Source: Escherichia coli | Lineage (GTDB): Bacteria > Pseudomonadota > Gammaproteobacteria > Enterobacterales > Enterobacteriaceae | Reading direction: 5' to 3' (one strand) | Assembly: GCF_048403405.1 (NCBI RefSeq) | Contig: NZ_CP183129.1 | Length of the DNA stretch: 64,000 nt | Translations under genes and position numbers: made by a program | Notes under the pieces: model-generated | The model's input: only the letters and a program-made list of their open reading frames with translations | The model's database searches: none | Told to the model about the DNA's origin: nothing | Part shown: positions 26,363 through 39,261 of the stretch, piece by piece | Layout: the number at the start of each line of letters is the position of its first letter | Position numbering within the stretch: position 1 is the first letter of the stretch

Positions 26363-28027
26363 TTACTCGCCTACTTTCGCCCAGGTATCACGCAGCCCAA
26401 CGGTGCGATTAAATACCGGTTTTTCCGCCGTAGAATGGCGGCTGTCGAGGCAGAAATAACCTTCACGCTCAAACTGGAATGCTTTACCCGCTACCGCGTC
26501 TTTCAGAGACGGTTCAGCAAAGCCCTGTTTGATCACCAGCGATTCCGGGTTAATCACCGACAGGAAATCATCCGCAGCACCTGGGTTCGGCACGCTGAAC
26601 AGACGATCGTACAGGCGGATTTCAACCGGCAGCGCATGTGCCGAGCTCACCCAGTGAATAACGCCTTTCACTTTACGACCATCTGCCGGATCTTTGCTTA
26701 AGGTGTCGGCGTCATAAGTACAGAAGATGGTGGTGATATTGCCTTCGGCATCTTTCTCCACGCGTTCTGCCTTAATGACGTAAGCATTACGCAGACGCAC
26801 TTCTTTACCCAGCACCAGACGCTTGTACTGCTTGTTAGCTTCTTCGCGGAAATCGGCGCGGTCGATCCAAATCTCACCGCTAAACGGCACCTGACGGCTC
26901 CCCATTTCCGGTTTGTTCGGATGGTTCGGCATGGTAACCATTTCGCCTTCGCCCTGGTAGTTTTCGATAACCAGTTTCACCGGATCGATAACCGCCATTG
27001 CGCGCGGGGCGTTTTCGTTGAGATCTTCACGGATGCAGGATTCCAGCGACGCCATTTCAATGGTGTTGTCCTGCTTGGTCACGCCGATGCGTTTGCAGAA
27101 CTCACGAATAGAAGCCGCAGTGTAACCACGACGACGCAGACCGGAAATGGTCGGCATACGCGGGTCATCCCAGCCTTCAACGTGCTTGTCGGTCACCAGC
27201 AGGTTCAGCTTACGCTTGGACATCACAGTGTATTCCAGATTCAGGCGCGAGAATTCGTACTGGCGCGGGTGAACAGGAATGGTGATGTTGTCCAACACCC
27301 AGTCGTACAGGCGACGGTTGTCCTGGAACTCAAGCGTACACAGAGAGTGCGTAATACCTTCCAGCGCATCGCTGATGCAATGGGTGAAGTCGTACATCGG
27401 GTAGATGCACCACTTGTTGCCAGTCTGGTGGTGTTCAGCAAATTTAATGCGGTACAGCACCGGATCGCGCATTACGATAAATGGCGACGCCATGTCGATT
27501 TTCGCACGCAGGCAGGCTTTACCTTCTTCAAAACCGCCGGCACGCATTTTTTCGAACAGCGCCAGGTTCTCTTCAACGCTGCGGTCGCGGTACGGGCTGT
27601 TTTTACCCGGCTGCGTCAGGGTGCCACGGTATTCGCGGATCTGTTCCGGCGTCAATTCATCAACGTACGCCAGGCCTTTATTGATCAGTTCGATCGCATA
27701 GGCGTGGAGCTGATCAAAATAATCGGAGGAGTAACGGACGTTACCAGACCAGTGAAAACCTAACCACTCAACGTCGTTTTTGATCGACTCGACATACTCG
27801 ATATCTTCTTTTACCGGGTTAGTGTCGTCGAAACGCAGGTTGCACTGGCCTTTATAGTCCTGGGCGATCCCGAAGTTCAGGCAGATAGATTTCGCATGGC
27901 CAATATGCAGATAGCCATTCGGCTCCGGCGGGAAACGGGTGTGTACTGTGGTGTGCTTACCACTGGCCAGATCTTCATCGATGATCTGACGGATAAAGTT
28001 AGTCGGGCGGGCTTCTGCCTCACTCAT
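26363..28027 (-). CDS. glnS: Glutaminyl-tRNA synthetase
   Basis: 554 aa; class I motifs HIGH (LHIGHAKS) and KMSKS-type (VMSKRKL). Confidence 0.97.
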
Positions 28028-28246
28028 CGTGGATTCCTCAAAGCGTAAACAACGTATAACGGCGTATGATCTTATAAGCGGGACAGGCTGACAACTGTTA
28101 GTTAGTGAAAAAGTGGTTTTGCGTAAGATATTGGGGCGTTTTCTGCGCTACAGCCAGCAGATCCTCGCGCTGGAGACGTAAGGCCAAACGTCGCCAGCCT
28201 GACGCGTCTATTAAATTTCCGGATGAGCTGGCCGCAGAGTCGTAGA

Positions 28247-29008
28247 TTAATCGGCTATGATTAAACGCGTCGATAAGGACGCAAGCGTTCTACGCGTCTG
28301 CCCATCAAGCTGATTATCCGTAATAATCTCTGTCAGTTCATTAAGATGCGCGATATTAAACAGCGACCATGAACCGTATTTTGAGCTGTCAGCCAGGAGA
28401 ATTTTGCGCGAAGCATGCGCGATAAGATCGCGTTTTAGTGCGGCTTTCTCTTCCGTGGGTGCTGTAATACCCTTTTCAAGATCCCAGCTGTTACAGCTTA
28501 AAAATGCCACGTCCGGCCAGGTATTTTGCAGCAATTTACGACCATGTTCGCCAATGCAGGACTGGCTGGAGTCGTCGATACGTCCACCGATAATCGTCAC
28601 TTCAATCTGCTTGAATTCAGCCAAAAAAAGCGCGATATGCAGGTCGCTGGTGATCACGCGAAGCGGTAAATGTGTAATCTGCCGCGCAAGTTCAATCATT
28701 GTCGTACCGGCATCAAGGACGACGGAATCCCCCGCTTTGACCATTGACGCCGCTGCGCTGGCGATGGCATGTTTTTCCGCCAGGCTGCGCTGCATTTTCT
28801 CATGGGTAGTCGGTTGGGTAGGAATAAACCGGTTGAGGGTCACACCGCCGTGTGTACGGCTGATAACACCCTGCTCATCGAGTTTTATCAGGTCTCGACG
28901 AATCGTGGCCGGCGACGCATTGGTTACCGCCACCAGCTCATCAACGGTGACCAGATTATGGCTTTTCAGGTAATCCATGATCTGCTCTAACCGGTTATAT
29001 CCCTTCAT
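28247..29008 (-). CDS. DeoR-family transcriptional regulator (island gene)
   Basis: 253 aa with N-terminal HTH ([37 protein letters not shown]) and a DeoR-type C-terminal sugar-phosphate sensor domain. Its start codon lies 1 nt from the stop of the upstream PdxA-family gene. Confidence 0.8.
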
Positions 29009-29009
29009 T

Positions 29010-29996
29010 TTATTCTCGCGAAATCTGCATTGCTAACTGGATGGAAACTGCCATGCTCTCAGACTTGGCTTTTCCTGTCCAGGCAATATCAAACGCGGTG
29101 CCGTGGTCGGCAGAAGTGCGAATAAATGGCAACCCGGCGGTGATATTCACCCCATCATAAAATCCAAGCAGTTTTAAAGGGATATGCCCCTGATCGTGGT
29201 ACATAGCCACTACCATATCGAATAGCCCTTCATGGCATTGCATAAACACGGTATCTGGCGGGCACGGGCCAGTAACATCAATATCTTCGGCCTGCATTGC
29301 TTCAATCGCAGGCGCGATAATCTCGATTTCTTCAGTGCCGAATAAACCGTGTTCCCCTGCATGTGGATTTACACCCGCCACGGCAATACGCGGACGCTCA
29401 ATACCAACACGTTTCAGGAAGTGGTTCGCAACTCGAATAACCGTTTTGACCCTTTCACCATTCAAAGTATCCAGGAATTTACGCAGTGAGATATGCGTCG
29501 AAATATGGATAACCTTGAGCTTATCGGTATAGAGCACCATCGCGTACTCTTTGCTGCCGGTAAGATGGGCCAGCAATTCCGTATGCCCCGGATAGTTATG
29601 CCCGCCAAGATGCAACGCTTCTTTATTCAGCGGCGCAGTGGCTATGGCTTTCACCTCGCCTGATAAGGCCAGGGCCGTTGCACGTTTGATACAGCGATAC
29701 GCTAAATCGCCTGCCGCAGCCTGTACCACTCCGGGTGTCAGCGCATCGGGGTTAGCCAGCGGCTCATCCATCACGTTAATCACGCCGGGAGCAAAATGGG
29801 CGTCGCACACCTTTTCAATGACGCGTAACTCTGCCTTCGGCGTGATATTCATCGCCATAATACGTCTCAGCGTGCGCACACAGCCCACCACCACCACCGG
29901 GGCACCAGCAAGCCCGGCTTCGCTCAGGGATTTAATAATGATCTCCGGGCCAATACCCGCCGGGTCGCCCATCGTTACCGCAATAATATTATTCAC
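29010..29996 (-). CDS. PdxA-family NAD-dependent dehydrogenase (PdxA2-like)
   Basis: 328 aa; N-terminus [22 protein letters not shown] matches the PdxA GxPxGIGPE signature, and [11 protein letters not shown] matches the conserved metal-binding His region. Confidence 0.8.
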
Positions 29997-31227
29997 TACG
30001 CTTCTCCTCGATAAAATTCAGAACCTGATGCAACGTGGTCTCATCGCCAAACCCACCGGCTTTCGTCATCACCGAACGGGACCAGACGCCGCCCAGAAAG
30101 TGACCGTATGGAACGCATTGCGCCACCTTCGCCGTAATACGAAATCCGGTCGCGCCTAACGCACTGGCTGTTGCCATTGCGACATCACCACCAGAGAGAT
30201 AAAGCGCATCGGGCATTGCGCGAAGCAGAACTTGCCGGGTAAGTTCGCCAAGAAACCGGCAAATTTTTTCCCCAAGCGCAGCGCGACTCATCTGCCAACG
30301 CTGGCAAAGGGTGTCGATCTGGTGCCTTGCTACAGAATCGTTACAGGTGTGGACAATGCAGTGGTCGCCTTTCTGCAAGGCCTGCACAATACGCGCGTCA
30401 TAGTCACTGGCATTGCCTGCCAGAATGTGTTCAACATCGACGTATATCTGTGTGATACGTGGGTGTGAATGAAGTGTGGCGATCTGCCGTTGAGCGATTT
30501 CGCTCATTGAACCAATAATGGCCAGCACGGTGGGTGGCGGCATAATCGTGGAGCGCCGGGCAACGGCATCACAAATACCAGCGGAGCCGACCAGCAGCAG
30601 CGGTTGTTTAGCCTGCATCACAGCGGCAGCGATGCGATCCAGGTCGCTGTCCGTCTGCGCATCTATCACGCCAATCCACGGTTGCTCATAAGACAAATGG
30701 CTGAGCTGAGAAACCGTAACGGGCTGGCATGGAATGGCCGTCTGCAACCGGATGATGTCCGCAATTCGGGCGCTCAATACCGGGGTTTTCGGATCGCTGG
30801 CAAACTCGGTTTCCGTTATCCGCACACCGTTTACCCAACACTCACCGGCCACTGTGGTCCTTCCCGCCTGAGGAAATGCGGGGGCAACCACTGCGCCCGT
30901 TATACCGCATGCCTTCATCAGGGCTTCAATTTCTGCGCCAATATTGCCTCGCAGCGTGGAATCTATCTTTTTAATCACGAGCGGAGGGTTATTCGCCAGA
31001 GGGAGATGACTCATCAGCGAGGTTATTTTCATCGCCGCCAGCTTAGGATCCATCGCCCGGCTGTCGCTGTTAATCACCCATACGCTGGCATCACCGCGAT
31101 AAGGCATTTCAAAGGCCACATCAACTGTATGCCCCACCTGCGCCAGGCTTACCCCCGCGTCATTGGCTCCCGTGAAATCATCGGCAACGACGAGAATGCT
31201 CGGCTTAGTGATTCCCTTTTCCATCAT
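29989..31227 (-). CDS. DUF1537-family four-carbon acid-sugar kinase
   Basis: N-terminal signature VVADDFTGANDAG characteristic of OtnK/DtnK-type kinases; 8-nt overlap with the downstream PdxA-family gene. Start chosen at the ATG preceded by GGAG (MMEKGITKPS...); the track ORF starts 13 codons upstream. Confidence 0.75.
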   Translation of the reverse strand: MMEKGITKPSILVVADDFTGANDAGVSLAQVGHTVDVAFEMPYRGDASVWVINSDSRAMDPKLAAMKITSLMSHLPLANNPPLVIKKIDSTLRGNIGAEIEALMKACGITGAVVAPAFPQAGRTTVAGECWVNGVRITETEFASDPKTPVLSARIADIIRLQTAIPCQPVTVSQLSHLSYEQPWIGVIDAQTDSDLDRIAAAVMQAKQPLLLVGSAGICDAVARRSTIMPPPTVLAIIGSMSEIAQRQIATLHSHPRITQIYVDVEHILAGNASDYDARIVQALQKGDHCIVHTCNDSVARHQIDTLCQRWQMSRAALGEKICRFLGELTRQVLLRAMPDALYLSGGDVAMATASALGATGFRITAKVAQCVPYGHFLGGVWSRSVMTKAGGFGDETTLHQVLNFIEEKRSE

Positions 31228-31264
31228 CACTCCAGGTTGTTTTATGATAACAATGATTATATTC

Positions 31265-31278
31265 AATCACGATTGATT
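31265..31278. promoter_or_regulatory. Operator-like inverted repeat AATCA-cgat-TGATT in the island divergent promoter
   Basis: Read directly; shares the TGATT/AATCA half-site with the second palindrome at 31360..31375. Confidence 0.4.
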
Positions 31279-31359
31279 AAATGTGAGCAAGCTCAAGTTA
31301 TTAATCACTCGAATAAATTATAAAATTAGACCATGTTACGTAGGCTACGGCATTTTGAA

Positions 31360-31375
31360 TGATTGAATTCAATCA
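31360..31375. promoter_or_regulatory. Perfect 16-bp palindrome TGATTGAATTCAATCA in the island divergent promoter
   Basis: Read directly; lies about 20 bp upstream of the Fe-ADH GTG start, consistent with a repressor operator. Confidence 0.45.
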
Positions 31376-31393
31376 CCAGAAGAGAGGTTATTT

Positions 31394-32551
31394 GTGGTAA
31401 TTATCAATAGCACGATACTGAGCGGCGCAGGCGCTATCCCTTCCCTGACGTCGCTCTTACCCGACATCAGAAAAATGCTGCTGGTCACTGACCGTAATAT
31501 TGCGCAGCTCGACGGTGTGCAGCAGATTCGCGCCTTACTGGAAAAGCACTGCCCGCAGGTTAACGTTATCGATAATGTGCCCGCAGAGCCCACGCATCAT
31601 GATGTGCGCCAGCTAATGGACGCCCCTGGCGATGCCTCTTTTGATGTGGTGGTCGGGATCGGCGGTGGCAGCGTGTTGGATGTGGCGAAGCTGCTATCGG
31701 TGCTTTGCCATCCACAATCACCAGGGCTGGATGCGCTGCTTGCGGGTGAAAAACCGACTCAGAGGGTGCAATCATGGTTGATTCCTACAACCGCCGGAAC
31801 CGGCTCAGAAGCCACGCCGAATGCGATTCTGGCAATCCCTGAGCAAAGCACGAAGGTGGGTATTATTTCCCCGGTGCTGTTACCAGACTATGTGGCGCTT
31901 TTCCCGGAACTGACCACCAGCATGCCCGCGCATATTGCGGCGTCCACGGGCATTGATGCTCTTTGCCACTTACTGGAGTGTTTTACCGCGACCGTGGCAA
32001 ATCCGGTCAGCGATAACGCGGCGCTGACTGGGTTAAGTAAGCTTTTCCGGCACATTCAACCCGCCGTGAACGATCCTCAGGATCTGCGCGCAAAACTGGA
32101 AATGCTGTGGGCGTCTTACTATGGCGGCGTAGCGATAACCCATGCGGGCACGCATCTCGTTCATGCGCTCTCCTACCCGTTAGGTGGCAAATATCATCTG
32201 CCGCATGGCGTCGCGAATGCCATCTTGCTGGCGCCGTGCATGGCGTTTGTTCGCCCCTGGGCGGTCGAGAAATTTGCCCGGGTCTGGGATTGCATTCCCG
32301 ATGCGGAAACCGCCCTGAGCGCGGAAGAAAAATCTCATGCCCTGGTGGCCTGGCTACAGGCATTAGTCAATCAACTCAAGCTACCCAACAATCTCGCGGA
32401 TCTCGGCGTACCGCCAGAGGATATTGCCTCTCTTAGCGAGGCGGCACTGAACGTGAAGCGCCTTATGAACAATGCGCCGTGCCAGCTTGATCTACAGGAC
32501 GTACAGGCCATTTACCAAACACTGTTTCCGCAACATCAATTTAAGGAATAA
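31394..32551 (+). CDS. Iron-containing (group III) alcohol dehydrogenase family oxidoreductase
   Basis: 385 aa; NAD-binding GGGSxxD motif (VGIGGGSVLDVAKLL) and conserved His cluster (HALSYPLGGKYHLPHGVANA). GTG start preceded by GAGAGG. Confidence 0.8.
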   Translation: MVIINSTILSGAGAIPSLTSLLPDIRKMLLVTDRNIAQLDGVQQIRALLEKHCPQVNVIDNVPAEPTHHDVRQLMDAPGDASFDVVVGIGGGSVLDVAKLLSVLCHPQSPGLDALLAGEKPTQRVQSWLIPTTAGTGSEATPNAILAIPEQSTKVGIISPVLLPDYVALFPELTTSMPAHIAASTGIDALCHLLECFTATVANPVSDNAALTGLSKLFRHIQPAVNDPQDLRAKLEMLWASYYGGVAITHAGTHLVHALSYPLGGKYHLPHGVANAILLAPCMAFVRPWAVEKFARVWDCIPDAETALSAEEKSHALVAWLQALVNQLKLPNNLADLGVPPEDIASLSEAALNVKRLMNNAPCQLDLQDVQAIYQTLFPQHQFKE

Positions 32552-32554
32552 ATC

Positions 32555-33442
32555 ATGCCGAAAACCATTGAAGGTGTATTAACCGCCATCGTCACCCCGT
32601 TTACCGCGACCGGCAGTCTGAATATCCCGGCGTTAAAAGTGCAGGTGAATCGTCAACTGGAAGCGGGTAACGCGATTTTTTGCGGCGGCACCAACGGCGA
32701 GTTTTTTGTGTTGAATGAACAGGAGAAGCTCAGCGTTACGCAAACCTGCGTGGATGAAGTGGCTGGTCGTGCGCCGGTCGTGGCACACATTGGCGAGATC
32801 TCGACGCGCGAAACGATTCGTCTGGGTCAGCAGATTGAAAAACTTGGCGTAGATGCTGTGTCGGTCATTACCCCTTACTTCGTACCGCTGAAACAGGAAG
32901 AGTTGATTGCGCATTACAGCGCAATTGCCGACGCGCTGAGCATTCCGATGTTTCTCTATAACATCCCGGCCCGCACTGGCAATACGATCCAGCCGGAAAC
33001 CGCGCGTGCTCTGGCGTCGCATCCCAATATCATTGGGATTAAAGACAGCGCCGGAAGCGACGAAAGCCTGAAGGGTTTTCTCGATGCTGTGCGCAACATT
33101 GACGGCTTTAATGTACTCAACGGCCCGGATTCGCTGATCCATAAAGGGTTTGTCGAGGGGTGTTCAGCCTGTATCTCTGGGCTCGCCAACGTCGCACCGC
33201 GGGAAATCAATGCTATCTGGTCTCGCGTCCATGCCGGTGATATTGAAGGGTCTTATGAAGCACAGGAGAGTGTAACGGGCCTGCGTACCGACCTTTATAA
33301 AGTAGCGTTCTCCCCGGCTGCGGTGAAAAAAGCGTTGCAGCTTATGGGGCATGATGTTGGTGATAGCCGCTACGCGGTTAATTTCACGCCTGAACAGATC
33401 AGCGAGATTCAACAAATTATTCGTCATTATAACATTAATTAA
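32555..33442 (+). CDS. DHDPS/N-acetylneuraminate-lyase-family class I aldolase or dehydratase
   Basis: 295 aa; GTNGEF motif (CGGTNGEFFVLNEQEK), the Tyr-containing ITPYF segment and the Schiff-base lysine context IGIKDSAG, typical of DapA/NanA-family enzymes. Confidence 0.8.
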   Translation: MPKTIEGVLTAIVTPFTATGSLNIPALKVQVNRQLEAGNAIFCGGTNGEFFVLNEQEKLSVTQTCVDEVAGRAPVVAHIGEISTRETIRLGQQIEKLGVDAVSVITPYFVPLKQEELIAHYSAIADALSIPMFLYNIPARTGNTIQPETARALASHPNIIGIKDSAGSDESLKGFLDAVRNIDGFNVLNGPDSLIHKGFVEGCSACISGLANVAPREINAIWSRVHAGDIEGSYEAQESVTGLRTDLYKVAFSPAAVKKALQLMGHDVGDSRYAVNFTPEQISEIQQIIRHYNIN

Positions 33443-33501
33443 ATTAACTCTATTATCCAGCCCGCGATAAAGTTTAGATAAAGAGAATAAAGGATTACTC
33501 C

Positions 33502-34260
33502 ATGTTTTTGTGGTTTATGCAGCCAGATATCTGGCTCACTTTAATTACCCTCACCTTTCTGGAAATTATTCTTGGGGTGGATAATATTATTTTTCTTTCA
33601 CTGGTGGTGGCAAAACTTCCGTTATCACAACAAAATATGGCGCGTAAACTGGGTTTAAGCTGCGCGATGATTATGCGGATATTATTGCTGATATCCATTG
33701 CGTGGCTTTCACATATTACCCAGCCGCTTTTTACCGTGCTGACGCTGGAGATTTCGTTCCGCACGTTGATTCTGCTCGGGGGCGGGCTGTTCCTGATTTA
33801 TAAAGCGATACAGGAGATACGCGAAGAGCTGTCGCCCGCGCAGGAAGACGAACATGGCAGCGGATCGCGGCAACTGTCGTTGTGCGGTGCCATCGTACAG
33901 ATAATGCTGCTCGATATCGTGTTTAGCCTGGATTCGGTGATCACCGCCGTCGGCCTTTCTCAGCATATATTTATCATGATTGCCGCCGTAATGATTGCCG
34001 TCGGTGTCATGATGTTTGCGGCGAAAACAATTGGTGATTTCGTTAACGCCACGCCGTCAATAAAAATACTGGCGTTAACCTTTTTATTATTTGTCGGTGT
34101 ATTGCTGGTTGCCGATAGTCTCAACATTCATATTGCCAAAGAGTATCTCTACTTCGCGATATTTTTCTCATTAAGTGTTGAGACACTCAATATTATCCGT
34201 GAAAGAAGAAATAAAAAAGTTTCGACATTGATCGAAACGCATGAATCGCACTCGCATTAA
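33502..34260 (+). CDS. TerC-family integral membrane protein
   Basis: 252 aa, multiple TM segments, paired TerC motifs GVDNIIF and LDIVFSLDSV. Confidence 0.7.
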   Translation: MFLWFMQPDIWLTLITLTFLEIILGVDNIIFLSLVVAKLPLSQQNMARKLGLSCAMIMRILLLISIAWLSHITQPLFTVLTLEISFRTLILLGGGLFLIYKAIQEIREELSPAQEDEHGSGSRQLSLCGAIVQIMLLDIVFSLDSVITAVGLSQHIFIMIAAVMIAVGVMMFAAKTIGDFVNATPSIKILALTFLLFVGVLLVADSLNIHIAKEYLYFAIFFSLSVETLNIIRERRNKKVSTLIETHESHSH

Positions 34261-34295
34261 TAAATCTATTACCGACTTTAAGATGGAGTCTAACT

Positions 34296-35465
34296 ATGTC
34301 TGTAGCCCTTATTCGTGACGGCGTCATCCGTCCATCCGAAAACGATTCGCATGTGCTTACCGCCATGCTGCCCTCGTCCTGCCCACAAAACCACGCGGCG
34401 AATATTCTGCCTTTGCCGGATGGCGCGTTAATGTGCGTCTGGTTTGCGGGAACGCAGGAAGGTATTGCCGATATTTCTGTCTGGGGATCGCGATTGCCCG
34501 CTGGCGGGATGCAGTGGAGCGATGCGGTCAAACTTTCCCACGATGACACGCGTTCAGAGCAAAACCCAGTGCTGTTTCTCGCGCCGGATAACGTGCTGTG
34601 GCTGCTATGGACCGCACAAATATCCGGGAATCAGGACACCGCCATCGTCCGCTACCGTAAGTCAGACGACCTCGGACAAACCTGGGGCGAGATTGCCACG
34701 CTGCTCGATAAACCCGGCACGTTCATTCGCCAGCCGATCACGGTGCTTGATAACGGCAACTGGCTGCTGCCCGTCTTTTATTGCCGTACCCAACCCGGTG
34801 AAAAATGGGTCGGCAATGATGATATCAGCGCAGTGAAAATTTCCGCTGACGGTGGTCACTCCTGGCGCGATGTCGTGGTGCCGCAAAGTCTCGGCTGCGT
34901 TCATATGAATATCACAATGCTGCACGACAGTACGTTGGTTGCTCTCTTTCGAAGCCGTTGGGCAGACAACATCTATATCAGCCATTCAGTGGACAACGGC
35001 GAGAGTTGGTCGGTGCCGCAAGCTACCGAATTGCCCAACAACAATTCGTCTATTCAGGTAACGACGCTTGCCAGCGGCGAACTGGCGCTGGTGTACAACG
35101 CGATGAGTGCGGCAGGCGCAGTAGAACGTCGCGCGTCGCTTTATGACGAAATCGACGATGGCGACGACAGCCGCAAAGAACCGACAGCCGTCGGACGCTC
35201 CGCTTTCTGGGGGGCCCCACGCGCGCCGATGACGGTAGCGATTTCTGCCGATGGTGGGAAAAGCTGGCCGTGGCGGCGCAATCTCGATGAAGGCGACGGC
35301 TACTGCATGACCAACAATTCCCTGGAAAAGCTAAATCGTGAGTTCTCCTACCCCAGCATCAAACAAAGCCCGGACGGTACGCTACATATCGCTTACACCT
35401 GGTGGCGTCAGGCCATCAAGTACGTGCGCATCTCCCCCGAGTGGGTTAAGGGGCAGGCATCATGA
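34296..35465 (+). CDS. BNR/Asp-box repeat protein (sialidase-like beta-propeller), apparently cytoplasmic
   Basis: 389 aa with four Asp-box motifs (SDDLGQTW, SADGGHSW, SVDNGESW, SADGGKSW). The N-terminus MSVALIRDGVIRPSENDSHV has no signal-peptide features. Confidence 0.75.
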   Translation: MSVALIRDGVIRPSENDSHVLTAMLPSSCPQNHAANILPLPDGALMCVWFAGTQEGIADISVWGSRLPAGGMQWSDAVKLSHDDTRSEQNPVLFLAPDNVLWLLWTAQISGNQDTAIVRYRKSDDLGQTWGEIATLLDKPGTFIRQPITVLDNGNWLLPVFYCRTQPGEKWVGNDDISAVKISADGGHSWRDVVVPQSLGCVHMNITMLHDSTLVALFRSRWADNIYISHSVDNGESWSVPQATELPNNNSSIQVTTLASGELALVYNAMSAAGAVERRASLYDEIDDGDDSRKEPTAVGRSAFWGAPRAPMTVAISADGGKSWPWRRNLDEGDGYCMTNNSLEKLNREFSYPSIKQSPDGTLHIAYTWWRQAIKYVRISPEWVKGQAS

Positions 35466-35932
35466 TTATCGGTAATCTCAACCATTTGTCGCTGGCGGGG
35501 CTTCCCGCCTGGGTGAGAAATATTCTGCTGTGCCCGGAGTGTTCGTTATCGGCGTTATCCGCCAGAGAGGACGGTCGCTGGCAACCTGAAGGATGTCGGT
35601 GGTTCTGCACGCTGGGAACTTCAGACACGCAACCCGCCGAACTCCGCCATACGGAGTATCACCATCTGTGGGCCGATATCCAGGTGGTGATTACTGGTTG
35701 TGAGGGCATTAATGCGGGAACGCGGCCCATCGCTCGCGAAAACGATGAAGAACGTAAGCCCGATCTGTTTATCGCCCCATCCCCTGAAAACAGTGTCGCC
35801 ATCACTCTACACCCCGGTGATTTCGCCGTCTTTATGCCTGAGGAACCTCACCAGGCGCTGTGCGCGATTGGCGCGGCTACGTCAGTACGCAAAGCGGTCT
35901 TTAAGGTACCGCGCGACATGCTGGAAGCCTAA
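35462..35932 (+). CDS. YhcH/YjgK/YiaL (DUF386) family protein
   Basis: 156 aa; C-terminal segment LHPGDFAVFMPEEPHQALCAIG resembles the conserved PGxFxVFxPxEPH motif of the YhcH/EbgC-like family. 4-nt overlap with the upstream BNR gene. Confidence 0.7.
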   Translation: MIIGNLNHLSLAGLPAWVRNILLCPECSLSALSAREDGRWQPEGCRWFCTLGTSDTQPAELRHTEYHHLWADIQVVITGCEGINAGTRPIARENDEERKPDLFIAPSPENSVAITLHPGDFAVFMPEEPHQALCAIGAATSVRKAVFKVPRDMLEA

Positions 35933-35945
35933 AAGGAGAGAAAAA

Positions 35946-37226
35946 ATGACAATGGAAATGATCCTGGCATTAGGAATACTGGTCCTGATGATCGTGCTGA
36001 TCATGTCGGACAAAATGCCATTTGGCGCACCGCCACTGCTTGCGTGTTTATTGCTGGTTGTCTCGGGACTTTCGACCGTTCAACAGGCTTTTGCCGGATT
36101 CGTCAATCCAAGCGTGGTGATGATTGCAGGGTTTATGGTGGTCATGGCAGCGCTACAAAAAACCCGGCTTATCAGCAACGTTAAATCTGCGATGATAAGC
36201 CTGGTCAATAAAGGCAGTTACCGCAGCTACGGGCTGTTGTTAGTCATTGTTATGCTGGGTGCCAGTCTTGCAGGCACCGGCGCGACCGGTTATTACGTGC
36301 TGATTCTGTCGCTGGTATCCACCATTCCGTACAGTAAAAAGCTACCAACATCGAAATTAATGATGCCCCTGGGATTTGCCACCAACCACCCGCTTCTTCC
36401 TATCAATCTCGCGCTTCTCTTTGGCGTTACGGCGACCGTACTCGAAACCGCGGGTTTTCATCAGGAGATTTCGATGGGGCGCTTTGCGCTGGTGAATCTC
36501 ATCATGTCAGCGGCGTTCCTCGCATGGAGTCTTATTGCCTACCGTTTTCTTCCGGATCATCCCATTGCGGATGCTTCCGAGGATGCGCTGGCGGCACGCG
36601 AGGAAACGTTTAACGCCCTTCCTGCCTGGAAAGAATATTGCACTATTGCCGCATTCGCTGTCAGCGTTATCGGCATGATGCTAATGAACATTCTGGGAAA
36701 TATCGCCTTCGTTATTCCGGGTCTTGCGGGTGCGTTTGTTCTGATGATCGATGTACTGGACTTTAAAGAAGTTCGCGATCATATGGGAGCGCCGGTCATT
36801 TTAATGATGGCGGGGGTGATCGGTGTAGCTGATGCACTGGCGGGCACCGGCTTTACGGCGATGGTTGGCGATGCCGTTGCAGGTGTGCTCGGTTCTGGCG
36901 TCTCACCGTTTGTATTTATTGTCGCCTTTGCTTTGCTTACCAGTACCTGCGCCACCTTCACGGGTTCGAATATGGGGTCTGTTTATATTTTTGCCCCCAT
37001 CGCCATTGCCGCCTGTACCAGCCTTGGGCTTAACCCGACCGCTGCAGCGATTGCGGTGGTGATTTCAGGCTGGAACGGCGGCTATATGCCTATTGACGGA
37101 ATGCCAGCCATGATCCTCGGAATGGGGAAATACAAACTTCCCGAATTCTGGGTGTTCTCTGTACCAATGTATCTCATCCGCATTCTGGCGCTTTGTGCAG
37201 GCGCTGTTTTTATCTTCCCAATGTAA
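35946..37226 (+). CDS. Ion-transporter-superfamily anion permease (GntP/CitMHS/DASS-like), putative sugar-acid importer
   Basis: About 426 aa of polytopic membrane protein from the ATG at 35946 preceded by AGGAGA. The track ORF 35700..37226 carries an 82-codon non-membrane extension that overlaps the YhcH gene in another frame. Confidence 0.7.
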   Translation: MTMEMILALGILVLMIVLIMSDKMPFGAPPLLACLLLVVSGLSTVQQAFAGFVNPSVVMIAGFMVVMAALQKTRLISNVKSAMISLVNKGSYRSYGLLLVIVMLGASLAGTGATGYYVLILSLVSTIPYSKKLPTSKLMMPLGFATNHPLLPINLALLFGVTATVLETAGFHQEISMGRFALVNLIMSAAFLAWSLIAYRFLPDHPIADASEDALAAREETFNALPAWKEYCTIAAFAVSVIGMMLMNILGNIAFVIPGLAGAFVLMIDVLDFKEVRDHMGAPVILMMAGVIGVADALAGTGFTAMVGDAVAGVLGSGVSPFVFIVAFALLTSTCATFTGSNMGSVYIFAPIAIAACTSLGLNPTAAAIAVVISGWNGGYMPIDGMPAMILGMGKYKLPEFWVFSVPMYLIRILALCAGAVFIFPM

Positions 37227-37234
37227 TCTCAGAC

Positions 37235-37314: not shown

Positions 37315-39261
37315 TTACTTTTTGATTTCATACAGCGGCGTTTGACCCGCCACGACATGGCCCTGAGCTTTAATGATCAAGCCGCTGAAATCGTCGATAT
37401 TGCTGCAAACCACCGGGCTAATCATCGAGCGGGCGTTAGCGTTCAGGTAATCCAGATCCATTTCCAGAATCGGTTGTCCTGCGCTTACCTGCGCGCCCTC
37501 TTCCACCAGACGTTTAAAACCTTTACCTTCCAGCGCTACGGTGTCGATACCCATATGGACGACGATCTCCGCGCCTTTTTCGGTTTCCAGGCAGAACGCG
37601 TGGTTGGTATTGAAGATTTTCACGATTGTCCCTGCGGCTGGTGATACGACGATTTTATCTGTCGGTTTCACCGCCACACCGTCACCCACCGCTTTGCTGG
37701 CGAATGCTTCGTCAGGAACCTGATCCAGTGCCACAACATCACCGGTAATCGGCGATACCAGCTCCGCGACAGACACCGCGTTTGGTATAGCCTGCGGTTT
37801 TGCTACAGGCGCGGCAGTTGCAGGCGCAGTTTCAGCTGACGTAGCGGCTACCGGACCACGGGCAACAACTTTCTTCATTGCATCGCCAATGGATTCCGCT
37901 TTCGCGCCAACAATCACCTGAATAGTCTGTTTGTTCAGTTTCACTACCCCAGAAGCACCCAGCCGTTTACACATCGCATCGTTGACGCGAGCCGAGTCAA
38001 CCACGGTCAGGCGCAGACGAGTAATACAGGCGTCAATTGCTTTCAGGTTGTCAGTGCCGCCAACCGCAGCAATATAGTTGGTCGCCAGTTGATTGAGGCC
38101 TTCTTCAGTGTTGCTGTTGGCTTCTTCAGTAACGATCTCATCTTCTTTATCTTCACGACCCGGCGTTTTCAGGTTGAACATGCGGATAACCAAACTGAAC
38201 ACCACGAAGTAGATAGCGAAGAAGACAACACCCATCACCAGCAGCATCCAGACGTTCTGGCTGGCGGCCGGCAGGTTATACATCAACGCGTAGTCGATAG
38301 CCCCCGCAGAGAAGGAGAAGCCCGCGTGGATACCCAGCAGCGTTGCCACAAACAGGCTGATACCGGTCAGCAGTGCGTGCAGGAGGTACAGCAGCGGCGC
38401 AAGGAACATGAACAGGAATTCCAGCGGCTCAGTCACACCGGTCAGGAACGCAGTAACAGCAACAGAAAGCAGCATACCGCCAACCATCGGACGACGCTCT
38501 TTCGGTGCTGCAAAGTACATCGCCAGCGCCGCACCCGGCAGACCGAACATCATGATCGGGAAGAAGCCGGACATGAACATCCCCGCGGTGCCGTCACCGG
38601 CATAGAAGCGGTTGATGTCACCGTGGAAAACCGTACCCGCCGCGTTGGTGAATTCACCAATCTGGAACCAGGCGATGGTGTTCAGTACCTGATGCAGACC
38701 GGTTGGGATCAGCAGACGGTTGATGAAACCAAAGATACCGGAACCCAGCGCGCCCGCAGAAACGATCCACTCGCCGCCTGCATGGATAGCGTGCTGTACC
38801 GGCGGCCAGACGTAACCAAAAATGGCCGCCAGCACCAGGCAGAAGAAGCCGGTGGCAATCGGCACAAAGCGTTTGCCGCCGAAGAAACTCAGGAAGTCCG
38901 GCAGTTTAATATCGGACCAACGGTTATAAGCTGCGCCACCAACCAGACCGGTAATGATACCCGCCAGTACACCCATGTTAATTTCCGGGTTGATGGTCAC
39001 CATCGCTTTGGTTAACACAAAGTAACCTACCGCACCCGCCAGCGCCGCCGCACCTGCGCTGTCTTTCGACCAGCTGGATGCCACACCGATGGCGAAGATT
39101 AATGCGAGGTTATCAAAAATCGCACCGCCCGCCTGGGCAATAAACGCAACGTTAAGTAAATCTGGCTGACCGAATCGCAGCAACAGCGCCGCCACCGGCA
39201 GCACCGCGATAGGGAGCTGTAACGCCCTACCGAGTCGCTGGAAAAAACCTAAAATATTCAT
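37315..39261 (-). CDS. nagE: PTS N-acetylglucosamine-specific EIICBA component
   Basis: 648 aa; EIIC membrane domain, EIIB Cys region (IDACITRLRL) and C-terminal EIIA domain. Confidence 0.95.
   Translation of the reverse strand: MNILGFFQRLGRALQLPIAVLPVAALLLRFGQPDLLNVAFIAQAGGAIFDNLALIFAIGVASSWSKDSAGAAALAGAVGYFVLTKAMVTINPEINMGVLAGIITGLVGGAAYNRWSDIKLPDFLSFFGGKRFVPIATGFFCLVLAAIFGYVWPPVQHAIHAGGEWIVSAGALGSGIFGFINRLLIPTGLHQVLNTIAWFQIGEFTNAAGTVFHGDINRFYAGDGTAGMFMSGFFPIMMFGLPGAALAMYFAAPKERRPMVGGMLLSVAVTAFLTGVTEPLEFLFMFLAPLLYLLHALLTGISLFVATLLGIHAGFSFSAGAIDYALMYNLPAASQNVWMLLVMGVVFFAIYFVVFSLVIRMFNLKTPGREDKEDEIVTEEANSNTEEGLNQLATNYIAAVGGTDNLKAIDACITRLRLTVVDSARVNDAMCKRLGASGVVKLNKQTIQVIVGAKAESIGDAMKKVVARGPVAATSAETAPATAAPVAKPQAIPNAVSVAELVSPITGDVVALDQVPDEAFASKAVGDGVAVKPTDKIVVSPAAGTIVKIFNTNHAFCLETEKGAEIVVHMGIDTVALEGKGFKRLVEEGAQVSAGQPILEMDLDYLNANARSMISPVVCSNIDDFSGLIIKAQGHVVAGQTPLYEIKK

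Follow-up and report, generated by a model that had tools for sequence, protein, structure and literature searches.

The closest described parallels for the locus considered here, the divergent spacer of a sugar-acid island in a 64,000-nucleotide stretch of Escherichia coli DNA (contig NZ_CP183129.1; hereafter the 64-kb window), are found in the gal repressosome and in systems governed by DeoR-family repressors. In gal, GalR at OE and OI brackets a CRP-dependent promoter (CRP at -41.5) at approximately -60/-70 and +40/+54. The operators of E. coli DeoR, TGTTAGAA-TTCTAACA and TGTTAGAA-TACTAACA, follow a 16-bp design (PMC5326754), and DeoR represses by looping between its operators (PMC8053113). 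Another member of the family, YgbI, is a repressor bound over the promoter of its cluster, as mapped by chromatin immunoprecipitation with exonuclease digestion (ChIP-exo), and its deletion derepresses the cluster (PMC8464067). In Brucella, the DeoR-family repressor VdtR lies within the erythronate (DUF1537) cluster, binds at several promoter sites in electrophoretic mobility shift assays and controls genes that are induced by the substrate (PMC10580937).

The island consists of two divergent operons, a kinase side that reads leftward and an iron-type alcohol dehydrogenase (Fe-ADH) side that reads rightward. The spacer between them carries two 16-bp palindromes of the form TGATT-N6-AATCA, here named O1 and O2. 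Judged from the sequence, these are very probably protein-binding regulatory sites. It also seems likely that they are the operators of the DeoR/GlpR-family protein encoded in the island, which would repress both operons and, with the kinase operon, its own gene. The features of the spacer are as follows.

31254-31269: O1, 16-bp operator-like palindrome TGATTATATTCAATCA, TGATT-N6-AATCA
31256-31261, minus strand: predicted -10 TATAAT of the kinase-PdxA-regulator promoter, inside O1; predicted start at approximately 31249
31265-31278: palindrome AATCAcgatTGATT, made up of the right half of O1 and a third half-site
31274-31278: third half-site TGATT; possibly part of a weak tandem operator O3, TGATTAAATGTGAGCA, at 31274-31289
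31279-31300: CRP-type site AAATGTGAGCAAGCTCAAGTTA, centre 31289.5, between O1 and O2
31319-31326, plus strand: predicted -10 of the Fe-ADH promoter, TATAAA (31319-31324) or TAAAAT (31321-31326); predicted start at approximately 31331-31333
31360-31375: O2, perfect 16-bp palindrome TGATTGAATTCAATCA, TGATT-N6-AATCA; ends 18 bp upstream of the Fe-ADH GTG

The likeness to the deo system is found at several levels. O2 and the E. coli DeoR operator TGTTAGAATTCTAACA agree at 12/16 positions and share the 5-6-5 design and the GAATTC centre (PMC5326754). Both O1 and O2 conform to the deoO design TG....GAATTC....CA (O2 at 12/16 to deoO1). The deo system also has multiple operators, one of them over a -10, together with CRP co-control and cooperation by looping (PMC8053113), and looping would be the corresponding arrangement in the island. 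The E. coli DeoR protein has the same HTH_DeoR plus DeoRC architecture and the TIRRDL core, but it is only 22% identical to the island regulator, and the half-sites of the two systems differ at 2/5 positions. In addition, the deo operators are approximately 600 and 300 bp apart at tandem promoters, whereas those of the island are separated by 106 bp at a divergent promoter.

The other systems resemble the island in organization. Like the proposed island repressor, YgbI is a local repressor with a single divergent-promoter target, and it lies beside an operon with a DUF1537 acid-sugar kinase. It is 33% identical to the island regulator, and its gene is divergent from its operon, whereas that of the island regulator is the last gene of an operon. 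The pathway of the ygbI/ygbJKLMN cluster also differs, with OtnK in place of the DtnK/PdxA2 pair. By eye, a different inverted repeat, TTCACATAAA-N18-TTTATGTGAA, can be read in the K-12 ygbI-ygbJ spacer (locus L145, 3313-3350) and may be the YgbI operator. VdtR, likewise a DeoR-family repressor, has its gene within a four-carbon acid-sugar cluster, but it is alphaproteobacterial, has no reported motif and accompanies another gene set. Finally, the gal operators are whole helical turns apart, approximately 11 as compared with approximately 10 in the island. In contrast to the proposed island repressor, GalR belongs to the LacI family and needs HU; one operator of the island also lies over the predicted -10 of the opposing promoter, and its loop is a proposal.

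Two palindromes and a third half-site

O1 and O2 agree at 14/16 positions. A mismatch-tolerant search of the 64-kb window returned O1 as the best second copy of the O2 16-mer, with two mismatches, both of them central. When the spacer was shuffled 200,000 times, two TGATT-N6-AATCA sites never arose (p<5e-6), and one site arose in 148 shuffles. A motif-agnostic test, counting any 5-N6-5 inverted repeat that occurs twice with the same half-site, gave 194/200,000 shuffles. Additionally, a weight matrix built from the sites themselves was used to scan the window and the fetched loci. O1 and O2 scored 23.5 and 26.0 bits, respectively, the next best site in the 64 kb scored 11.7 bits, and no further strong operator site was found in the window. 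A literature search for the operator sequences returned just one chloroplast coincidence.

A sequence-only reading of the locus had proposed that two related inverted repeats, each next to one divergent start, serve a single repressor. Both of its sequences are present, AATCAcgatTGATT at 31265-31278 and the perfect 16-bp palindrome at 31360-31375. Its spacer length of 166 bp is also right for the kinase ATG that it used, at 31227; counting from the RefSeq kinase start (31224), which a GGAG-N5-ATG ribosome-binding site favours, gives 169 bp. The relatedness of two inverted repeats holds for O1 and O2, but the left site had been read in the wrong register because the unit equivalent to O2 is TGATT-N6-AATCA at 31254-31269, and the halves of AATCA-N4-TGATT face outward and have another spacing. 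The left cluster consists of three half-sites, TGATT(31254)-N6-AATCA(31265)-N4-TGATT(31274). The placement of each repeat next to one start has to be amended as well, since O1 holds the predicted kinase -10 and O2 lies at approximately +30 to +45 of the predicted Fe-ADH transcript.

The case for the other register is that AATCA-N4-TGATT at 31265-31278 is the functional site and that the TGATT at 31254 belongs to the promoter and is there incidentally. Conservation across genera extends to all three half-sites, and the 4-bp spacer between O1 and the third half-site is constant in length and variable in sequence. However, O2 has the N6 arrangement alone, without an N4 partner, and it is in the N6 register that O1 matches it. 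Inward-facing N6 and outward-facing N4 repeats would demand different modes of binding from a symmetric dimer, and the third TGATT is the least conserved of the three half-sites, being kept in 11/13 aligned loci. Thus, it is very unlikely that the N4 arrangement is the operator. The pattern AATCA-N(2-8)-TGATT is not rare on its own, with three occurrences in the window as compared with 0.53 expected; the two besides 31265-31278 are within coding sequence.

The third half-site may form part of a weak tandem operator, O3, which scores 10.5 bits with the weight matrix and has its centre 20 bp from that of O1. O3 shares bases with the left arm of the CRP-like site; the third TGATT itself falls outside the 22-bp CRP consensus.

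Two further matches to the matrix lie within genes. A perfect 7+7 palindrome, TGAGCGATTTCGCTCA, is found inside the kinase gene (30491-30506) on the MSEIAQ codons. It is kept across genera (L004 6722-6737; L009 5503-5518) with scores of 11.7-15 bits, 11.7 in E. coli, and its half-site TGAGC is the variant left half of O2 in Citrobacter and Salmonella. This palindrome is probably a coding coincidence, an intragenic auxiliary operator being the alternative. An operator-like sequence also occurs inside the regulator gene (28875-28890), on the LIKLD codons of the recognition helix. Its score is 10.5 bits in E. coli but reaches 20.3 bits among the copies from Kosakonia and Citrobacter (TGATTAAACTCGATCA; L010 7119-7134, L007 8344-8359), and it could be an intragenic third operator in some lineages or a coding coincidence. 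In the E. coli window, both hits were judged to be coding coincidences in view of the conserved peptides beneath them and their weak E. coli copies.

Conservation, spacing and predicted promoters

Related loci were collected in two ways. One did not rely on the motif; genomes were scanned with the kinase and orthologues of the regulator were looked up, yielding 15 loci, of which 13 spacers were aligned. The genera represented are Escherichia sp., Pseudocitrobacter, Citrobacter (four), Erwinia, Kosakonia, Klebsiella (two), Pluralibacter, Salmonella, Aeromonas and a Pseudomonas-labelled assembly. The kinases of these loci are 53-94% identical, and all loci share a five-gene core, in which genes for the regulator, PdxA and the kinase are divided by the spacer from those for Fe-ADH and a dihydrodipicolinate synthase (DHDPS)-like protein. 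The second way scanned metagenome contigs with the DNA pattern of the invariant O1-plus-CRP core and brought the pooled total to 101 distinct spacers, which sit between kinase and Fe-ADH genes wherever the contig is long enough. Deeper loci, reached via regulators at 57% and approximately 41% identity, lay on contigs of 1-5 kb with no usable promoter.

The operators stand out from their surroundings at every level of this comparison. Within E. coli, the spacer is 96-100% identical, and its approximately 17 polymorphic positions all fall outside the half-sites, with one in the degenerate centre of O2. O1 is nearly invariant in the 15 protein-retrieved loci, and among the 13 that were aligned, from Escherichia to Aeromonas, 14/16 of its positions do not vary; the identical 16-mer occurs in 96/101 distinct spacers, a set that was partly retrieved using part of O1 as the pattern. 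O2 retains TGA...A...AATCA in the alignment. In an O2-anchored information profile of 98 spacers, the outer bases are high and both flanks are near zero. The left half of O2 is TGATT in approximately 55% of spacers and TGAGC in approximately 35%, and the right half AATCA is nearly invariant. The regions left of O1, from TATAAA to O2 and right of O2 are unalignable across the 13 spacers.

The distance between the two operators is conserved as well. It is 105-106 bp in 76/101 spacers and 102-106 bp in 97/101. The outliers comprise two spacers at 93 and 94 bp, approximately one helical turn shorter, one spacer without O2 and one variant locus. In the latter, a metagenome contig (L108), a palindrome TGATTTATAAATATCA lies directly on the rightward -10 TATAAA, approximately 60 bp downstream of O1, and replaces O2 at 105 bp; this looks like an alternative operator placement. 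Control distances drift, from 24 to 74 bp between O1 and the kinase start and from 17 to 55 bp between O2 and the Fe-ADH start. Since the flanking distances drift and the O1-O2 spacing does not, the latter is specifically constrained, at approximately 10 helical turns. Such a spacing would be predicted for cooperative binding to the same face of the DNA or for looping.

Between the operators lies a CRP-type site that matches the CRP consensus AAATGTGATCTAGATCACATTT at 16/22 positions and is the sole such match in the window (0.11 expected from shuffles). Its GTGAnCAA..TCAA bases are invariant across the aligned genera. In all 15 protein-retrieved loci, exactly 28 bp separate the centres of O1 and of the GTGA...TCAA block, and the block is 30 bp from the rightward -10 TATAAA in 14/15 (29 bp in the automatic Aeromonas call). 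The GAGCAAG within the CRP spacer is also nearly invariant, beyond what CRP requires, which would fit an overlap of the putative O3 with the CRP site. The TATAAA block is invariant in the 13-spacer alignment. From start sites predicted via the invariant -10 hexamers, the CRP centre is at -41.5 rightward and -40.5 leftward, and for Fe-ADH this is a putative class II position. O1 spans -20 to -5 of the predicted kinase promoter, and its centre is at -69.5 of the predicted Fe-ADH promoter. The ATTATA of O1 is the same in every locus, whereas O1 positions 9-11 differ between loci and the central bases of O2 vary freely. An invariant centre in O1 but not in O2 indicates an extra constraint on O1, namely the predicted -10 element.

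This constraint raises the question of whether there is a dedicated operator at all. O1 might be a promoter element, combining the -10 with a surface for the alpha C-terminal domain of RNA polymerase by CRP, and O2 an RNA or leader element, their likeness being coincidental. The overlap of O1 with the -10 is in keeping with this, as are the plasmids of Pantoea ananatis that lack the regulator and kinase and keep O1, the CRP-like site and the -10, with one mismatch in each half-site of O2. O2 is just as weak in a Klebsiella locus (L011) in which the regulator is present, so that the weakened O2 favours neither reading. Against coincidence, the TGATT-N6-AATCA repeat occurs twice as a 5-N6-5 unit (p<5e-6), and the O1-O2 spacing is constrained while the flanks drift. 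In addition, conservation of the outer bases of O2 is symmetric at the DNA level, comparison of the spacer with Rfam gave no match at E<=1, and the RNA of the predicted Fe-ADH leader is no more stably folded than shuffled versions of it (z = 0.00). The RNA-level reading was rejected on the last two grounds, and coincidence of this kind is extremely unlikely overall. On the P. ananatis megaplasmids (L147 4172-4636, PA13 plasmid PAGR_p; L123), a kinase remnant is present and no regulator follows the PdxA gene; the PLSDB gene table omits pseudogenes.

The candidate repressor and its mode of action

The regulator of the island is a protein of 253 amino acids with an N-terminal HTH_DeoR (PF08220) and a C-terminal DeoRC (PF00455) domain in Pfam, as in all of its orthologues, and it thus belongs to the DeoR family. 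Its residues 71-229 match the structure of the E. coli DeoR C-terminal domain (7L6L; E = 7e-9). Nevertheless, the protein scores below every NCBIfam equivalog cut-off tested, including those for AgaR (172 bits; cut-off 260), YgbI (169; 400) and DeoR (83; 244), and it is an orthologue of none of AgaR, YgbI, GlpR, SrlR, UlaR, FucR and DeoR. Its clade is distinct; among full-length 50%-identity clusters, the nearest shows 57% identity and the following one approximately 42%. DeoR, YgbI and the island regulator share the TIRRDL helix core, preceded by the residues EM, HM and PA, respectively. Among approximately 75 orthologues, the recognition helix and wing are invariant, and the TGATT/TGAGC variants of the O2 left half track no change in the DNA-binding domain.

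The regulator gene accompanies the sites in 60/62 loci with enough flank, both exceptions being decayed loci. Since the gene is co-transcribed with the kinase, autoregulation is implied. The proposal of one repressor for both operons, with the DeoR-family protein as the candidate, held in each of the comparative tests, namely conservation, geometry, synteny, likeness to the DeoR operators and the YgbI and VdtR parallels; the island regulator is the putative binder. As a separate observation, the regulator (73-100% identity) and the operators are far better conserved than the enzymes, with the kinase down to approximately 39% and Fe-ADH to approximately 50% (loci L003-L143). It would seem that the enzymes change at a much higher rate than the regulatory cassette or, alternatively, that they are being swapped. 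The module is also mobile. In one Klebsiella contig (L011 9792-14762), its neighbours are ccdAB and genes for type IV secretion/conjugation, and the Pantoea copies reside on megaplasmids of 270-470 kb. Its presence in unrelated chromosomal and plasmid contexts favours a self-contained control of the module.

An alternative is that O1 and O2 are true operators bound by another, host-encoded transcription factor. P. ananatis retains O1 despite the loss of the regulator gene from the locus, YgbI, the closest paralogue with mapped binding, has no similar motif in its promoter, and the pairing of the island regulator with this DNA is itself a prediction. However, the module moves between contexts and genera, from Aeromonas to Escherichia, with O1 and the recognition helix both invariant, and a host factor would need equal invariance. 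The lack of another strong site in the window also argues against a host factor. By eye, none of the well-known E. coli motifs that we compared (Cra, ArgR, Fur, NagC and LacI-type) fits TGATT-N6-AATCA. Control by a host factor is therefore unlikely.

A second alternative is that the island regulator does bind these sites but acts mainly as an inducer-dependent activator or dual regulator in the manner of FucR, aiding CRP from O1. The O1 centre, at approximately -69.5 of the predicted Fe-ADH start, occupies a class I activator position, and the NCBIfam model for FucR, the L-fucose operon activator, hits the regulator at 101 bits. In contrast, the location of O1 over the invariant leftward TATAAT and that of O2 downstream of the predicted rightward start are both repressor positions. 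The characterized members of the DeoR family are also mostly repressors, including YgbI and VdtR, which control DUF1537 clusters. Activation is thus an improbable role for the protein.

Several observations weigh against the regulator of the island being a DeoR-like repressor acting at O1 and O2. The DeoR family includes activators such as FucR, and the regulator is nearer to AgaR, YgbI and GlpR than to DeoR. No TGATT-N6-AATCA or similar palindrome was found in the ygbI-ygbJ spacer, so the resemblance to the deo operators may be coincidental. Neither the recognition helix nor the half-sites vary, which leaves no scope for covariation to tie the protein to the sites. The co-occurrence of regulator and sites comes from loci that are all homologous and is not independent evidence. 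Given that the P. ananatis plasmids keep O1 without the regulator, part of the conservation of O1 could stem from its function in the promoter. Spacings of 102-104 bp, found in approximately 20% of spacers, are loose for strict helical phasing. Finally, a scan of the spacer for consensus sigma-70 promoters and terminators gave no hit and no -35/-10 pair, although the lack of a recognizable -35 is as expected for activator-dependent promoters.

If the island regulator is the repressor, as seems likely, a mechanism can be proposed. A dimer would bind each TGATT-N6-AATCA unit. Repressor bound at O1 would cover the TATAAT -10 and so occlude the kinase-PdxA-regulator promoter, resulting in negative autoregulation. 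A multimer could bridge O1 and O2, which at 105-106 bp, or approximately 10 turns, would lie on the same face of the DNA, and thereby loop out the CRP site and the Fe-ADH promoter. This loop of approximately 105 bp would resemble those formed by GalR between gal OE and OI and by DeoR between deo O1 and O2; a roadblock at O2 by itself is a further possibility. The weak O3, 20 bp from O1, would let the repressor compete with CRP. A single cAMP-CRP dimer centred at 31289.5 would activate both class II-type promoters from approximately -41. The repressor would be released by an intermediate of the pathway, most likely the kinase product 4-phospho-D-threonate or a similar phosphorylated compound. 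DeoR, GlpR and UlaR all respond to phosphorylated intermediates as inducers, and the proposal follows by analogy with them.

The island, its cargo and a possible pathway

The island occupies the spacer between nagE and glnS, and its junctions were set by blastn against K-12 MG1655. Its genes and their neighbours in the window are listed below, with functions from RefSeq annotation and NCBIfam models where noted.

26363-28027, minus strand: glnS, flanking gene
28112-37231: sugar-acid island, inserted in the nagE-glnS spacer
28247-29008, minus strand: DeoR/GlpR-family regulator, 253 amino acids; last gene of the left operon and candidate repressor
29010-29996, minus strand: PdxA2-type D-threonate 4-phosphate dehydrogenase (RefSeq annotation and NCBIfam)
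29989-31224, minus strand: DUF1537-family four-carbon acid sugar kinase, annotated dtnK (RefSeq annotation); first gene of the left operon
31394-37226, plus strand: right operon overall
31394-32551, plus strand: Fe-ADH, first gene of the right operon
32555-33442, plus strand: DHDPS/NanA-family aldolase, right operon
33502-34260, plus strand: TerC, right operon
34296-35465, plus strand: BNR_2 sialidase-like protein, right operon
35462-35932, plus strand: YhcH/NanQ-like protein, right operon
35946-37226, plus strand: SLC13/DASS permease, right operon
37315-39261, minus strand: nagE, flanking gene

With a size of 9.1 kb, the island splits the 202-bp nagE-glnS spacer of K-12, as seen by blastn. 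It is found whole in 1047 of 5426 complete E. coli genomes, or about a fifth, and always on the chromosome, with no copy on a plasmid among the 1047. The copy in the window is 100% identical to those of strains GN02461 and MS 69-1 and 98.7% identical to that of E2348/69, and the carriers include the model strains E2348/69 and 83972 and an ST131 isolate. The region has been catalogued as the uncharacterized 'GR 6 nagE..glnS' region common to extraintestinal pathogenic (ExPEC) and adherent-invasive (AIEC) E. coli strains, and the complete island has been reported in such strains, including CFT073 and LF82 (PMC12928451).

The coding sequences of the left operon overlap or abut. The kinase scores 532 bits against NCBIfam NF047819, the D-threonate kinase equivalog, above its cut-off of 450. 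It is just 40% identical to the characterized Salmonella DtnK (PMC12928451), and its enzyme activity is a prediction. The PdxA2-type dehydrogenase scores 681 bits against NF002891, above the equivalog cut-off of 583. On the other side of the spacer, the start codon of Fe-ADH is GTG in 12 of 13 aligned genera and ATG in the exception, locus L012. A non-ATG start so widely kept may reflect a tuning of translation.

Beyond the five-gene core, the cargo is a mosaic. TerC, BNR_2, DUF386 and SLC13 proteins are found in E. coli, Salmonella and Aeromonas, the last without TerC, while an SSF permease with BNR_2 occurs in Erwinia, Kosakonia, Klebsiella, Pluralibacter and P. ananatis. In Citrobacter youngae, L012 and Pantoea vagans, the cargo is a 2-hydroxyacid dehydrogenase with an MFS protein.

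The core enzymes suggest a route by which a seven-carbon 3-deoxy-ulosaric acid might be degraded, the candidate substrate being the pectin sugar 3-deoxy-D-lyxo-heptulosarate (DHA). First, the DapA-like aldolase (DHDPS/NanA-type) would cleave the substrate to pyruvate and a four-carbon aldehyde-acid, which Fe-ADH would then reduce to D-threonate. DtnK would phosphorylate D-threonate, and PdxA2 would convert the product to dihydroxyacetone phosphate (DHAP) and CO2. The stereochemistry of this route, worked by hand, gives the D-threo form, and both the SLC13 dicarboxylate-type permease and the plant-associated hosts fit the DHA idea. A literature search for DHA catabolism found nothing. The complete picture would be a portable cassette of operators, a shared CRP site and a self-regulated repressor that switches on this undescribed pathway, with 4-phospho-D-threonate as the inducer and a gal-like loop of 10 turns. 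As a joint reading, it is speculative and rather unlikely to hold in all of its parts.

Overall, the control scheme of a local repressor, paired palindromic operators, CRP and a divergent catabolic promoter is textbook local control that is undescribed for this island. What it contributes is annotation and a practical tool, for instance for switching the island on or for using the promoter as a reporter for gut and plant-derived sugar acids, rather than a new concept. Taken together, the operator motif, the promoter model and the candidate repressor would offer a direct way to the inducer of the island and hence to its substrate.

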